Positions 43,417-56,863 of a DNA stretch of 60,000 nt are shown here, piece after piece. Position 1 is the stretch's first letter; each line of letters begins with the position of its first letter. Made by a program: the position numbers and the translations under genes. The notes beneath the pieces are model-generated. The model ran no database searches, was not told the origin of the DNA, and was given only the letters and a program-made list of their open reading frames with translations. The stretch spans positions 27,344,001 to 27,404,000 of the forward strand of contig CM119371.1 in NCBI GenBank assembly GCA_051294905.1. The letters are read 5' to 3'. Source of the DNA: Botryllus schlosseri. Taxonomy: Eukaryota.

Positions 43417-44230
43417 AGTAGTTATGTAGATCGGTCGCATGACGCCATTGGTTCTTATGGGCGGGGTGGTGACTCGCCTGAAAACCGGGGGTGGTGACTC
43501 GCCTTTTTAGACCCCCCTCTCGGCGGTGAGTCGCCATGTGTTCTTATGGGTGCGGCCGTGATTCGCCATTTCGGGTATAGGCTGCGTCGGTGATTCGCCC
43601 TGAAAACTCGGGGTCGTGACTCGCCTTTTTTGCTATAGGCGGTGGCGGTGATTCGCCTGTCATGTATTCTTACGGGATCTGTGGTGACTCGCCATGTGTT
43701 CTTATGGGTGCGGCCGTGAATCGCTGTTTCGGGTATAGTCAACTCTCTCGACCGATGTTGAAGAAGTATCAGGAATAGTAAATAGTCACGTGATTGATTC
43801 TTAGTTAATGTGTGTATTACAAATTATTAAATATGACCGATTCGAGTTAATCCCAACGTTTACGGTGAGTACGACAATAATATATCGTTATTCTTATGGC
43901 GGGGGTGGCATGCGGCTCTTATGTCTTATGGCGGGGGTCGCAAGCGGCTGGGAAACCCGGGGTGGCAAGCGGCTTTTTTGTCTTATGGCGGGGGTGGCGA
44001 GCGGCTATTGCGTCTTGTGGTCGCACGGTAACCCTTTTCAGTATAGGGATCGGTCGCACACGGCTTCGTTGTTGACATGTCGTACTTCGTGTTGAATATG
44101 TATCAAGTAAATAGTCATGTGATTGGTCCTTAGTTAATGTGTATATTCCAAATTACGGCGAGTACGACAATGATATATCGTTATTCTTATGGACGCGGTG
44201 ATGATTCGTACTTTCGGGTATAGACTGCGG
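43417..44230. repeat. Terminal repeat array (GGTGAYTCGCC / TCTTATGG motifs, direct and inverted)
   Basis: About 10 GTGAYTCGCC-like motifs; 43526-43580 repeated at 43682-43738; 43765-43897 resembles 44098-44192. Confidence 0.85.
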
Positions 44231-47200
44231 GCGGAATGTCGCACTTTCAACAAAAAGGCGTGAAAATAGTTTGCAAAATCTAGGAATTACTCGCATGGTA
44301 ATGTTTGAGTAATTAGATTACCCCAGAGCCGGCGTAGACGGCGATTCGAATATCAACAATAGCCGCATTCACAAACTAACACTTCAAATAGGTGTGAAAT
44401 AGTTTGCAAAACCCCGCGATCGCTGACAAGATAATATCTCGGACATAACCATCTTTCGCGACTTGGTGCTACAGACATCGATCACTCACGCGGTGAAATT
44501 TTCGTAAGCAGTTTGGCACAGAGCTTGATTTCACTCGTAAGATTTAATAAGTAACGAACAACAGACCGCCAGCGTCGGTAACTTGAATAGCGACAAATTG
44601 TCACTTATTTCCGCTCTAACCCTAATCCTTTGTGAAGTGAACGCTTATTCAAAAGGGTGTGATATCATTTTAAAATCCAACGACCACTCGCCGGATAATG
44701 CTTCAGACATAGCAATCCCTGATACCCGCTCACAAGGTAATATTTTGGTAATTAGTTTGTCACAGAACCGGCGTAGACGGTGGTTCGAAAACCAACAATT
44801 TGACGCTTTCTGGTGGTCGCTATATGTTTTGACACCTCGAACAGTGGCTGACTTTAGTTGCACGCTAAGAATTATGAGAATATTCAATCAATGTGTCTAT
44901 TTGTCAACTTGAAATGAAACTCACTACACAAACCAAGTTGATTCGTATTTGAATGTGTTGATCCGGTACAACTCTAAGCCTTTGAGAAATCCATTTACCG
45001 CGATCAGTTGATTCGAACGTAACCTGAATATTGCTAACTCCAACTTCAGTCGCATCGAATTATTCACACATTCCATTCCGCTGTTTCACGCCTATAGAAT
45101 CAATACCAAGTAACTAAACAAGAATCAAGCAATCGCAAGTATACACATACAATAATTGTATTTATTACTGAGAAATCAAACGCCTAACAAAAACACGCAA
45201 CTTATCATTTGGCCAACTCTAGCATTACCAAAAAATCTAGGTATTGTTGATTGAAAACCCGTGAGTCCTTCATATCAAAAATGTTATAGTGTGGCGTCGG
45301 AATCCATTCGCGAGATGTTCTATGGGTCAATCGAGGTAATCCAAAATGAAATATCTCGACTTTGATATAGTCTAAATTGAAATAGATTGACAAACATGAC
45401 TACCAACTTTCCCGCAGTCTCATTTCAATATTATACGCACATTGATTTGAAACAAGTAATGATCCGGCTTTTCGTTTGTCAAAGCGACATTTTAACATCT
45501 CACCATACTCAAAAGAATTATTCACAACATCACCAAGTGTTAAAAATCTAGTTTTCACTTACTTGATTATATCACTGCAACTCACAAATTTGAATTAATT
45601 CATCCTGGTTGTATTCATATGACCGATAATTTTTATTCAATTGTAAAGGTCGTTACTATTCTGAAGACAAAGTAAGCTATTTACTAATCGACACATATAC
45701 GACTTGACATAAACATATTATATTTTGAGTATACGAGATTTGAATGTCTGAATAATAACCGAGAAATAATTTATCACAATAAAATCCGTACATTACAGCG
45801 TAAAAGATGTCGGAATGTCAGCAACTCTGTACGGTCAACCCGATCAACTCGTCATGATCATTCCTGAAATCGACACAAACATGACCACTGACTTGAGTTA
45901 ACCACAAAACAGCATCAAGTTTTAAATCCACTTGTAGCTTACGGCTTATTCGAATGCTGGTTATGTTTTGTTGTAATTGAGTATACGAGGTTTGAAAGTT
46001 TGACCAACGTAGTTGAGAATTCATTTCTTACAATCGAACGCGGGCGTTATATTAAAAATTATAATGATGTAAACATAAGGTTCGACACATTGATTTGACA
46101 TATGAGATTTTGTAATGCTCGACCACGACTTGATTATTAAATTATTTTGAATCGCCTGAAATAATTGTCGTCATCTAACCAGACTACTGAAAGTCGTTGC
46201 CATCACAAAAACAATTTGCATGACGTTTATTAAATGTGTCCTATAGTTAGAATTATTTGTAAAACACACACACAATCAGAGAAATTGAAAATCTTCCTAA
46301 TGTCATTCGTCAAAGTAAATGTCATCACAATACTCAGTCACTAAAAGACCTTACTTGTACGGGATTGAAGCACCGATAATTAACTAGCTAAACCGAACTC
46401 CAAAGAAATTTTACTCACTCGACGGATATGAAACAACATCGCTTAATCGGTCTATATCGTTTTTCTAAATGCAAATCATATCCACCCAGCAGAAAACAAT
46501 TTTCACTCGCTTGGTAATGAAACCGAAGTCTCCATTCGATATTTTATTTTTGGTCAAATACTATGCAATGAACACATTTGAGTGGCTGAGCTTTACATCA
46601 TCAAGCTGCCATCTGTAAATCAAGATTACATCCAACTTGTAACTGTATCGTTTAACTACCGGGTTGCATCAGTTTGCTATTTTTTTCATTTAGTGACTGC
46701 TGAACATACCAAACGATGCACATTCACTTACGAAATACTGTGTTGATCGTAATTTCCACCTTCGTGATAATCGAATTACATTTGTTTCGAGTTCATAACA
46801 ACCGACTACTTCTCTATGACATGGCGAATTTTTTTGAAAAGTTATGCTTAGAAGATTGGTGCATCTCGCGAAAAAATAATATACCACTCATATTGATACT
46901 GTTACTCCATTGACCGGTATTTTCAAACGAGTCGATTTTCAACCGAGCAAAATTTATTACTTGAGTTGTCCCGCTTACTATATTTAAATGTAAACTCACC
47001 CGTCTTTCAACAACAAACAATCATAAAAAAGTACACAAGCAAACACAACAAGTTTTACTTTTGTAGGACACTAATTATTATTCCACGCATCTCATTTCAT
47101 ACTAAGCGTATATGAAAGATATTCATGATACACGAATATATTCGCTCATGCTACGAACATACGCAATGATTGGTGACGCTTTCACACTATTTCGATTTAG

Positions 47201-54300: not shown

Positions 54301-56863
54301 CCACTCAAATGTGTTCATTGCATAGTATTTGACCAAAAATAAAATATCAAATGGAGACTTCGGTTTCATTACCAAGCGAGTGAAAATTGTTTTCTGCTGG
54401 GTGGATATGATTTGCATTTAGAAAAACGATATAGACCGATTAAGCGATGTTGTTTCATATCCGTCGAGTGAGTAAAATTTCTTGGGAGTTCGGTTTAGCT
54501 AGTTAATTATCGGTGCTTCAATCCCGTACAAGTAAGGTCTTTTAGTGACTGAGTATTGTGATGACATTTACTTTGACGAATGACATTAGGAAGATTTTCA
54601 ATTTCTCTGATTGTGTGTGTGTTTTACAAATAATTCTAACTATAGGACACATTTAATAAACGTCATGCAAATTGTTTTTGTGATGGCAACGACTTTCAGT
54701 AGTCTGGTTAGATGACGACAATTATTTCAGGCGATTCAAAATAATTTAATAATCAAGTCGTGGTCGAGCATTACAAAATCTCATATGTCAAATCAATGTG
54801 TCGAACCTTATGTTTACATCATTATAATTTTTAATATAACGCCCGCGTTCGATTGTAAGAAATGAATTCTCAACTACGTTGGTCAAACTTTCAAACCTCG
54901 TATACTCAATTACAACAAAACATAACCAGCATTCGAATAAGCCGTAAGCTACAAGTGGATTTAAAACTTGATGCTGTTTTGTGGTTAACTCAAGTCAGTG
55001 GTCATGTTTGTGTCGATTTCAGGAATGATCATGACGAGTTGATCGGGTTGACCGTACAGAGTTGCTGACATTCCAACATCTTTTACGCTGTAATGTACGG
55101 GTTTTATTGTGATAAATTATTTCTCGGTTATTATTCAGACATTCAAATCTCGTATACTCAAAATATAATATGTTTATGTCAAGTCGTATATGTGTCGATT
55201 AGTAAATAGCTTACTTTGTCTTCAGAATAGTAACGACCTTTACAATTGAATAAAAATTATCGGTCATATGAATACAACCAGGATGAATTAATTCAAATTT
55301 GTGAGTTGCAGTGATATAATCAAGTAAGTGAAAACTAGATTTTTAACACTTGGTGATGTTGTGAATAATTCTTTTGAGTATGGTGAGATGTTAAAATGTC
55401 GCTTTGACAAACGAAAAGCCGGATCATTACCTGTTTCAAATCAATGTGCGTATAATATTGAAATGAGACTGCGGGAAAGTCGGTAGTCATGTTTGTCAAT
55501 CTATTTCAATTTAGACTATGTCAAAGTCGAGATATTTCATTTTGGATTACCTCGATTGACCCATAGAACATCTCGCGAATGGATTCCGACGCCACACTAT
55601 AACATTTTTGATATGAAGGACTCACGGGTTTTCAATCAACAATACCTAGATTTTTTGGTAATGCTAGAGTTGGCCAAATGATAAGTTGCGTGTTTTTGTT
55701 AGGCGTTTGATTTCTCAGTAATAAATACAATTATTGTATGTGTATACTTGCGATTGCTTGATTCTTGTTTAGTTACTTGGTATTGATTCTATAGGCGTGA
55801 AACAGCGGAATGGAATGTGTGAATAATTCGATGCGACTGAAGTTGGAGTTAGCAATATTCAGGTTACGTTCGAATCAACTGATCGCGGTAAATGGATTTC
55901 TCAAAGGCTTAGAGTTGTGCCGGATCAACACATTCAAATACGAATCAACTTGGTTTGTGTAGTGAGTTTCATTTCAAGTTGACAAATTGACACATTGATT
56001 GAATATTCTCATAATTCTTAGCGTGCAACTAAAGTCAGCCACTGTTCGAGGTGTCAAAACATATAGCGACCACCAGAAAGCGTCAAATTGTTGGTTTTCG
56101 AATCACCGTCTACGCCGGTTCTGTGACAAACTAATTACCAAAATATTACCTTGTGAGCGGGTATCAGGGATTGCTATGTCTGAAGCATTATCCGGCGAGT
56201 GGTCGTTGGATTTTAAAATGATATCACACCCTTTTGAATAAGCGTTCACTTCACAAAGGATTAGGGTTAGAGCGGAAATAAGTGACAATTTGTCGCTATT
56301 CAAGTTACCGACGCTGGCGGTCTGTTGTTCGTTACTTATTAAATCTTACGAGTGAAATCAAGCTCTGTGCCAAACTGCTTACGAAAATTTCACCGCGTGA
56401 GTGATCGATGTCTGTAGCACCAAGTCGCGAAAGATGGTTATGTCCGAGATATTATCTTGTCAGCGATCGCGGGGTTTTGCAAACTATTTCACACCTATTT
56501 GAAGTGTTAGTTTGTGAATGCGGCTATTGTTGATATTCGAATCGCCGTCTACGCCGGCTCTGGGGTAATCTAATTACTCAAACATTACCATGCGAGTAAT
56601 TCCTAGATTTTGCAAACTATTTTCACGCCTTTTTTTTGAAAGTACGACATTCCGCCCGCAGTCTATACCCGAAAGTACGAATCATCACCGCGTCCATAAG
56701 AATAACGATATATCATTGTCGTACTCGCCGTAATTTGGAATATACACATTAACTAAGGACCAATCACATGACTATTTACTTGATACATATTCAACACGAA
56801 GTACGACATGTCAACAACGAAGCCGCGTGCGACCGATCCCTATGCTGAAAAGGGTTACCGTGC
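51309..56863 (-). repeat. Right arm of giant inverted repeat
   Basis: Reverse complement of the left arm with only scattered substitutions (e.g. LDYIK vs LDYVK, NMSGI vs NMIGI in mirror ORFs). Confidence 0.98.

Follow-up and report, generated by a model that had tools for sequence, protein, structure and literature searches.

A palindrome with Polinton-type ends in the Botryllus schlosseri genome belongs to a high-copy, non-coding family whose arms may be re-made by fold-back replication

The window studied here is a stretch of 60,000 nucleotides of Botryllus schlosseri DNA (contig 1:27344001-27404000 of an assembly of 495.5 Mb in 219 contigs), and it contains a palindrome more than 13 kb long that starts with AGTAGT, as Polintons do. 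The question raised by this locus is whether the palindrome is a replication accident that happened once, at this place, or one copy of an element that is inherited as a palindrome. The initial annotation argued for an accident, in which a template switch copied one end of a Polinton back onto itself. The evidence points instead to an inherited element, and we assign a probability of about 0.62 to the reading that the palindrome belongs to a high-copy, non-coding, non-autonomous family of Polinton/Maverick derivatives, which would have been born by snap-back and whose arms would be re-made by fold-back replication. The name FB1 is used for this palindromic family 1, and the copy in the window, WIN, is one decaying member of it. 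Positions given as window-equivalent carry the numbering of the window on past its edges.

The inverted repeats of WIN form three collinear blocks, 44023-48690/52196-56863 (4,668 nt, 99% identity), 48640-49411/51454-52225 (772 nt, 100%), and 50220-50374/51309-51463 (155 nt, 99%). They flank a unique spacer of 934 bp at 50375-51308, which would be the loop of the fold-back form and is kept across the family. In a BLAST comparison of the whole element, the arms differ at 23 of 5,405 columns and at 10 of 604, together 33 mismatches in 6,009 columns (0.55%). The mirrored arms around a 934-bp spacer described in the initial annotation are borne out by both the inverted-repeat blocks and BLAST, and the palindrome is confirmed as a genuine feature. 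The gap between the blocks near 48.65 kb is a difference of one 21-bp tandem unit, and the second gap is a MITE (miniature inverted-repeat transposable element) of ~0.81 kb that is present only in the left arm. The non-coding left arm (43417-50374, plus strand) is 6,958 bp long including this later MITE and ~6,144 bp without it. The inner part of the right arm (51309-56863, minus strand) has 5,555 bp, and the outer 717 bp lie at window-equivalent 61781-62497. Tandem repeats are limited in each arm to the terminal ~0.6 kb and to ~0.3 kb near 48.5 kb.

The left end of WIN is AGTAGT at 43417, directly preceded by GACCTA at 43411-43416. Position 56863, which had been taken for the right boundary, is not the end of the element but the point at which a CACTG...CAGTG element of 4,917 bp (56864-61780, of which 56864-60000 lie in the window) interrupts the right arm. 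Past this insertion the arm resumes with ...GCGACCACAAGACACAATAGCCGC, one base off the string that had been predicted, and a counterpart of the terminal 604 bp, 98% identical, occupies window-equivalent 61894-62497. The predicted ACTACT is present at window-equivalent 62492-62497 and is followed by the second GACCTA, likewise predicted, at 62498-62503. The full span of 43417-62497 measures 19,081 bp, or ~13,350 bp once the two later insertions are subtracted. The terminal motif has one match in the window and none in 100 shuffles.

Thirteen reads (run X24) and two contigs (run X3) join position 43416 straight to the sequence after the right GACCTA. The flank of WIN is a high-copy repeat, and these reads and contigs are most likely uninterrupted paralogues of it, which have one GACCTA, and not an empty allele. 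Paralogue or empty allele alike, they indicate that WIN was inserted precisely, with a 6-bp duplication. The two insertions that WIN received later have duplications of their own: 4-5 bp in the case of the MITE (49407-50219, with GGCTAATTCC...GGAATTAGCC ends and inverted ends of ~60 bp), and 2-3 bp in the case of the CACTG element, which is found only in the right arm. The right arm has no copy of the MITE, and the MITE-less joint 49401->50220 was seen in all four sequencing runs compared.

The terminal region of WIN (43417-44200, plus strand) has the AGTAGT end and contains tandem units of 32 bp along with sub-repeats of GGTGAYTCGCC and TTCTTATGG. An autonomous relative of this terminus had been expected elsewhere in the genome, and one was found on contig 16. 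A search with the polymerase of a complete Polinton located at the start of the window gave 385 candidate loci. They fall into two lineages, whose identity to the query is at least 86% in one and ~68% in the other (lineage 2). A genome search for Pfam family PF03175 was empty, which is a false negative, as the polymerases reach 20-22 bits against a cut-off of 25.8. The lineage-2 hit at contig 16:14151458-14155306 sits between a pair of FB1-like termini, which delimit a Polinton of 16,434 bp with an inverted repeat of ~0.85 kb, an AGTAGT end, and the duplication CAAGTC. It has open frames for a polymerase (1,295 aa), an integrase with rve and chromo domains, an A32-like ATPase, and a double jelly-roll (DJR) capsid protein.

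The repeat of the contig-16 Polinton matches the outer 0.5-0.7 kb of the FB1 copies at 80-89% identity, and positions 43417-44200 of WIN at 80% over 714 columns, which agrees with the Polinton-type left terminus that had been proposed at 43417. The GGTGAYTCGCC motif occurs five times in the WIN terminus and six times in the contig-16 Polinton, and is absent from the other lineage. The TTCTTATGG sub-repeat is common to the FB1 ends and the contig-16 repeat, and 97 of the first 100 bases of C2, the FB1 copy read on contig 2, match the contig-16 Polinton. Kapitonov and Jurka are said to have given 5'-AG...CT-3' ends as a rule for Polinton families in 2006. Judged by sequence comparison, these similarities support the view that the FB1 terminus is a genuine Polinton terminus. 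The contig-16 Polinton is the example that ties FB1 ends to a coding element; among the 26 lineage-2 polymerase hits listed, 19 have no internal stop, indicating that candidate helpers are plentiful.

FB1 itself does not encode such proteins. The longest stop-to-stop frame in the arm and spacer has 123 aa, none of the 77 element open reading frames (ORFs) of at least 45 aa reaches the Pfam cut-off, and tblastn of 47 Polinton ORFs from both lineages against eight palindromic sequences gave no match at E<=0.01, which agrees with the absence of intact viral genes noted initially. Scans of 43000-57000 for Rfam families and tRNAs found none. The polymerase and rve integrase that characterise an autonomous Polinton are lacking from FB1, as are the DJR capsid protein, packaging ATPase, and protease of the virion module, of which a 165-bp relic overlapping the 3' end of a presumed protease ORF is the only trace. 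A passage of PMC5499653 defines Polintons by gene content; by that definition FB1, without polymerase and integrase genes, is not a Polinton. The 6-bp target duplication and the ends shared with Polintons of the same genome identify it as a mobilised non-autonomous member of the superfamily. In one raw RNA run the depth is ~0-2 over most of the arm, too thin to bear on expression.

Seven FB1 copies were read: five from end to end (WIN and C4, C3, C10, and C2, which are complete copies on contigs 4, 3, 10, and 2), one short of its ends (C3b), and one rearranged copy of 28 kb. All six copies other than WIN are palindromic with multi-kb arms, including C3b and the rearranged copy, which have the same layout. 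In C4, C3, C10, and C2 the arms are 6.2-6.4 kb long and 99.7-100% alike, with 5 mismatches in 6,233, 11 in 6,554, 1 in 6,347, and 10 in 6,399 columns, respectively, and the spacers measure 664-976 bp. C3 carries a 4.1-kb insertion in one arm. The inverted repeats make up ~93% of the FB1 element. In all five copies with ends read, the termini are AGTAGT...ACTACT and the 6-bp duplication is perfect, its sequence varying from copy to copy (GACCTA, GGCGCC, CGCGAC, GACGCT, and CACGAG).

The family is present throughout the genome in high number. The terminal 606 bp match many plus/minus pairs elsewhere in the genome, and the motif AGTAGTN{4,8}GATCGSTCG occurs 973 times in forward and 967 times in reverse orientation, compared to 1 and 2 occurrences of the reversed control. 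A probe from the spacer gave 948 first-look candidates, and all 40 that were scored are 87-91% identical. The motif and candidate counts also take in autonomous Polintons and one unrelated repeat. The exact 21-mer from the end of WIN has 37 forward and 43 reverse matches, which form 33 pairs with a median distance of 13,696 bp; 19 of these pairs fall within 12.5-14.6 kb, eight are longer, probably due to nested insertions, and six are shorter. In this WIN subfamily 14 of the 80 termini are unpaired. The modal length of FB1 is ~13.4-13.9 kb. We estimate, rather than count, several hundred copies and up to ~800-900, corresponding to ~8-12 Mb or ~2% of the assembly. The sequence AGTAGTTTTGGTCGATCGCTCG was observed at 7 of the first 100 motif places, unpaired and confined to one strand; it probably belongs to the interior of another repeat and would raise the number of motif matches by a few per cent.

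Contigs that match WIN at 95% identity or more were observed in runs X8 and X14, in X8 as 952 pieces across all 30 bins. A run with such contigs is labelled as a different organism. Whether through descent or transfer, FB1 is common to no fewer than two species labels.

The two arms of each copy have changed together. Four-row alignments, consisting of the left arm and the reverse-complemented right arm of two copies, were made for five pairs of copies and contain 747-1,088 symmetric differences per pair versus 4-41 one-arm differences, so that more than 95% are symmetric. FB1 copies differ from one another at 13-21% of aligned sites. WIN, C3, and C2 are ~15% apart, yet arm and spacer meet at identical positions in all three, on the left of the spacer as well as on the right; a search for further copies with the junction of WIN had been proposed initially. 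Shared junctions at such divergence indicate that the palindrome was inherited, and not re-invented, while the lineages diverged. These patterns suggest that each arm serves to re-make the other in every replication cycle. The relationships among copies are mosaic, with segments ranging from 68% to 99% identity, which suggests recombination or template switching among lineages.

Arm divergence within copies ranges from 0.016% in C10 to 0.55% in WIN, an ordering drawn from a small sample. WIN has the most diverged arms and also two one-arm insertions that were neither removed nor copied across. A faster evolution of the spacer than of the arms, considered because an arm probe had best matches of 98-99% and the spacer of 91%, was rejected, as C3b is ~92-93% identical throughout; the arm probe had struck a conserved segment.

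Both arms carry the remains of the same Polinton end. A sub-terminal relic at 45126-45289 (plus strand), mirrored at 55597-55760 in the right arm, corresponds to the interior of the contig-16 Polinton that adjoins its protease-side repeat (71.6% identity over 169 columns, E 2.7e-13, in both arms). The relic of ~165 bp is found on both arms in four of six FB1 copies with 72-74% identity, and its E values are 1e-13 to 1e-16 in three copies and 9e-5 over 77 bp in the fourth. The other, non-protease side of the Polinton has no similarity to the FB1 copies apart from one 28-bp match. The presence of the same sub-terminal region on both arms indicates that one end was copied back, as a deletion derivative would carry two different ones. 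FB1 therefore probably began as a snap-back of one Polinton end. The copy-back initially proposed stands to the extent that both arms derive from the same end, whereas its one-off, local template switch does not, as the palindrome is a trait of the whole family.

A second family, FB2, has the same layout. One member (contig 4:4489486-4503965; 14,480 bp) has arms of 6.28 kb with 16 mismatches, a spacer of 1.9 kb, and the duplication AGTATG, and lacks any ORF of 150 aa or more. Another (contig 1:3286665-3302229; 15,565 bp) lies inside an FB1 copy in the region contig 1:3274501-3303817, and has the duplication CGATTG, arms of ~7.77 kb, only ~30 nt at its centre, and AGTAGT ends that are unlike those of FB1. 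The divergence of its arms is ~0.13%, compared to ~0.27% in the FB1 copy that holds it. The FB2 terminus gave 231 first-look candidates, and no helper was found. The arm-spacer-arm layout is thus present in all seven further palindromic copies (six FB1, one FB2), and its occurrence in FB2 indicates that palindromic architecture recurs among Polinton-ended parasites of this genome.

The proposed life cycle of FB1 is as follows. A replicating molecule of a Polinton end would have been copied back on itself to give the founder. The polymerase and integrase of lineage 2 would replicate and integrate FB1 in trans, acting on ends that are the helper's terminal repeat and presumably serve as replication origin and integrase recognition end. 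The model of protein-primed strand-displacement replication of Polintons was proposed by analogy with adenoviruses, and in it the displaced strand pairs its inverted ends. In FB1, the displaced strand could zip up over its whole length, the spacer forming the loop of a 6-kb hairpin; this would be the adenovirus-type panhandle taken to an extreme. The arms would become identical in each cycle if the hairpin underwent mismatch repair, or if incomplete strands folded back and were extended at the 3' end, and a molecule with one arm and the turn could regenerate the full element. Semiconservative or end-to-end copying would leave the arms unhomogenised. Insertions would be born with identical arms that subsequently drift, as do the long terminal repeats of retroviruses. 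The range of arm divergence from C10 to WIN, the two one-arm insertions kept by WIN, and the lower arm divergence of the nested FB2 element than of its FB1 host are consistent with this view.

An unlikely explanation, which nevertheless accounts for part of the data, is that FB1 is a long-repeat element moved as double-stranded DNA by a Polinton integrase, and that its arms are kept alike by chromosomal conversion or recombination, as in large genomic palindromes, without any fold-back. Arm identities of 99.4-99.98% together with 13-21% divergence between copies are expected from conversion of a master copy too, and the shift of the arm boundary between subfamilies fits a spreading conversion tract. 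However, WIN keeps the MITE, the 4.9-kb insertion, the tandem-unit difference, and 33 mismatches, and C3 keeps its 4.1-kb insertion. The retained one-arm differences indicate that homogenisation in place is not efficient, and that conversion is slow at best. The same-end origin and the near-spacerless FB2 relative also point to replication errors.

It is improbable that the palindromes have been made anew repeatedly from non-palindromic half-elements at a hot spot of snap-back. FB2 shares the layout, only ~30 nt separating the 7.8-kb arms of one member; the boundaries of C4 and C10 differ; and the 14 unpaired termini of the WIN subfamily would fit half-elements. These points are outweighed by the junctions that WIN, C3, and C2 share on both spacer sides and by the conservation of the spacer in all 40 candidates scored, and no half-element progenitor was seen among the copies read. 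A single template switch at this locus, giving a unique copy-back defective Polinton by one integration, is very improbable: its predictions of structure and ends were correct and both arms do stem from the same Polinton end, but hundreds of copies have the same layout, ~15%-divergent copies share a junction, the arms are mostly non-Polinton sequence, and the family-wide architecture refutes it. An assembly artefact of chimeric fold-back reads deserves virtually no credence, since, although long palindromes are a known class of artefact and the supporting data are contigs and 90-nt reads, every copy read end to end lies in unique flanks and shows a perfect 6-bp duplication of its own, the spacer is specific as well as conserved, the one-arm insertions have duplications of their own, and the family is present in contigs of other studies and of another species label.

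Several observations weigh against the preferred reading, according to which FB1 is a snap-back-born Polinton derivative re-made by fold-back replication. Neither Polinton lineage read has nucleotide or protein similarity to ~5 kb of each arm. FB1 therefore did not arise by simple deletion or copy-back from a helper genome, and its description as a simple copy of one Polinton end does not hold. The position at which arm gives way to spacer varies, with the C10 arm reaching ~40 nt further than the C4 arm. The copy number is derived from motif and first-look candidate counts, and nine palindromic elements (seven FB1 and two FB2) were read of several hundred. The polymerases fall below the PF03175 cut-off, and their identity rests also on Atlas look-alikes. 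No replicative or extrachromosomal form was seen, and no pile-up of molecule ends was detected in one read mapping; three of the four runs consist of contigs, which are unable to show ends. The homogenising step is deduced from sequence patterns, and chromosomal gene conversion between the arms could contribute to it.

The lengths of FB1 (13.4-13.9 kb) and FB2 (14.5 and 15.6 kb) are 81-95% of those of the Polintons (15.4 and 16.4 kb). Non-autonomous elements usually shrink. The length kept despite 13-21% divergence and without coding constraint hints at a size requirement of packaging or replication; it could also simply reflect youth, a further point against the preferred reading. It is possible, although we regard it as doubtful, that FB1 and FB2 are encapsidated, helper-dependent satellites, i.e. 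heritable snap-back genomes that outnumber their helpers and make up ~2% of the genome. Packaging into capsids would then hold the elements near the helper length, and they may damp helper activity in the germline.

FB1 resembles Polintons/Mavericks in its 6-bp duplication, its AGTAGT...ACTACT ends, and its homologous terminal repeat, but its inverted repeats of 6.2-6.4 kb contrast with those of 0.29-0.85 kb in the two Polintons read. The nearest published case found is that of butterfly polintons, for which a part of preprint 10.1101/2025.02.07.637071 describes gene-bearing inverted repeats of ~2 kb. A search of full-text literature, with Repbase entries outside its scope, returned no description of gene-less palindromic Polinton derivatives. 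Snap-back genomes are defined in a section of PMC13506859 as symmetric palindromes formed by reverse-complementary copying, and those of adeno-associated virus are a further example (excerpt of PMC8235507). FB1 is like snap-back defective genomes in its symmetric palindrome and in having both ends from one parental end. However, such genomes are normally transient in infected cells and consist of parental sequence, whereas FB1 is integrated in the germline, heritable, divided into subfamilies, and present in hundreds of copies, and its arms are mostly not of parental sequence.

Adenoviruses and Polintons share protein-primed replication. The SYREC genome of adenovirus type 12 (Ad12), attributed to Deuring, Klotz, and Doerfler in 1981, reportedly combines a viral terminus with non-viral DNA in a large symmetric duplication of near helper length. 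FB1 resembles SYREC in the viral terminus joined to other DNA, and its packaging would be hypothetical; SYREC arose in cell culture without integrase-mediated integration, whereas FB1 is integrated. SYREC is described in a portion of PMC2396429 as a recombinant of Ad12 and host DNA that needs a helper adenovirus. FB1 is also like the Foldback/Galileo elements of Drosophila in that long inverted repeats form most of a non-coding element. It differs from them in arms of mostly unique sequence, a 6-bp duplication, and a Polinton partner indicated by end homology, and there is no sequence relation; the target duplication of Foldback/Galileo has a different length. Galileo, with very long, internally repetitive, and mostly non-coding inverted repeats, is classed with the P elements in the part of PMC3573991 that concerns it.

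To our knowledge, the replication of Polintons/Mavericks has never been observed directly, and the panhandle model is borrowed from adenoviruses. The co-evolution of 6-kb arms is the footprint expected of intrastrand fold-back, and it makes the model testable in a living animal genome. If the preferred reading is true, transient snap-back by-products of infection can succeed in the germline as parasites of an endogenous virus, the divergence of the arms provides a built-in clock of insertion, and an animal genome tolerates hundreds of near-perfect palindromes of 13 kb. Elements like FB1 will be misassembled or misannotated in most pipelines.

Nesting of the elements was observed at several places. 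The region contig 1:16768420-16810237 contains three nested pairs of family termini, spanning 41.8, 28.7, and 14.6 kb. WIN, FB2, and the contig-16 Polinton, which lies in a satellite of the GACTTGAGTCAAGTC type, all sit inside other repeats; this may reflect chromodomain-guided integration into repeat-rich chromatin.

The Polinton at the start of the window is complete and measures 15,410 bp, occupying positions 1-7904 and extending upstream to window-equivalent -7505. It has a 291-bp inverted repeat (96.9% identity) with AGTAGTGTAATTG... ends, AGTAGT at its termini, and the duplication GACGGT. Its ORFs encode the polymerase (1,306 aa), an A32-like ATPase (879-1496), an integrase with rve and chromo domains (2139-3290), a DJR-capsid-like protein (5741-7081), and a presumed protease (6934-7524). 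This Polinton lies 35.5 kb from the palindrome, to which its repeat is unrelated past the first bases. It was rejected as the partner of WIN, as blastn of the arm and spacer against window positions 1-43000 gave no similarity and only 23 of 40 bases of its end agree with the helper-type end. Just downstream of it, at 10768-11398, is a stretch of ~630 bp that matches its own reverse complement at 91.4% over 639 columns. An RVT_1 fragment below cut-off was observed on the minus strand at 32301-33122, beside a GC-skew peak at 32001-34000. The CACTG element in the right arm of WIN contains a Penelope-like retroelement with reverse transcriptase and GIY-YIG ORFs (58215-59843, minus strand), and inverted repeats of 90 bp at ~58028-58117 and 59768-59857 flank this retroelement.

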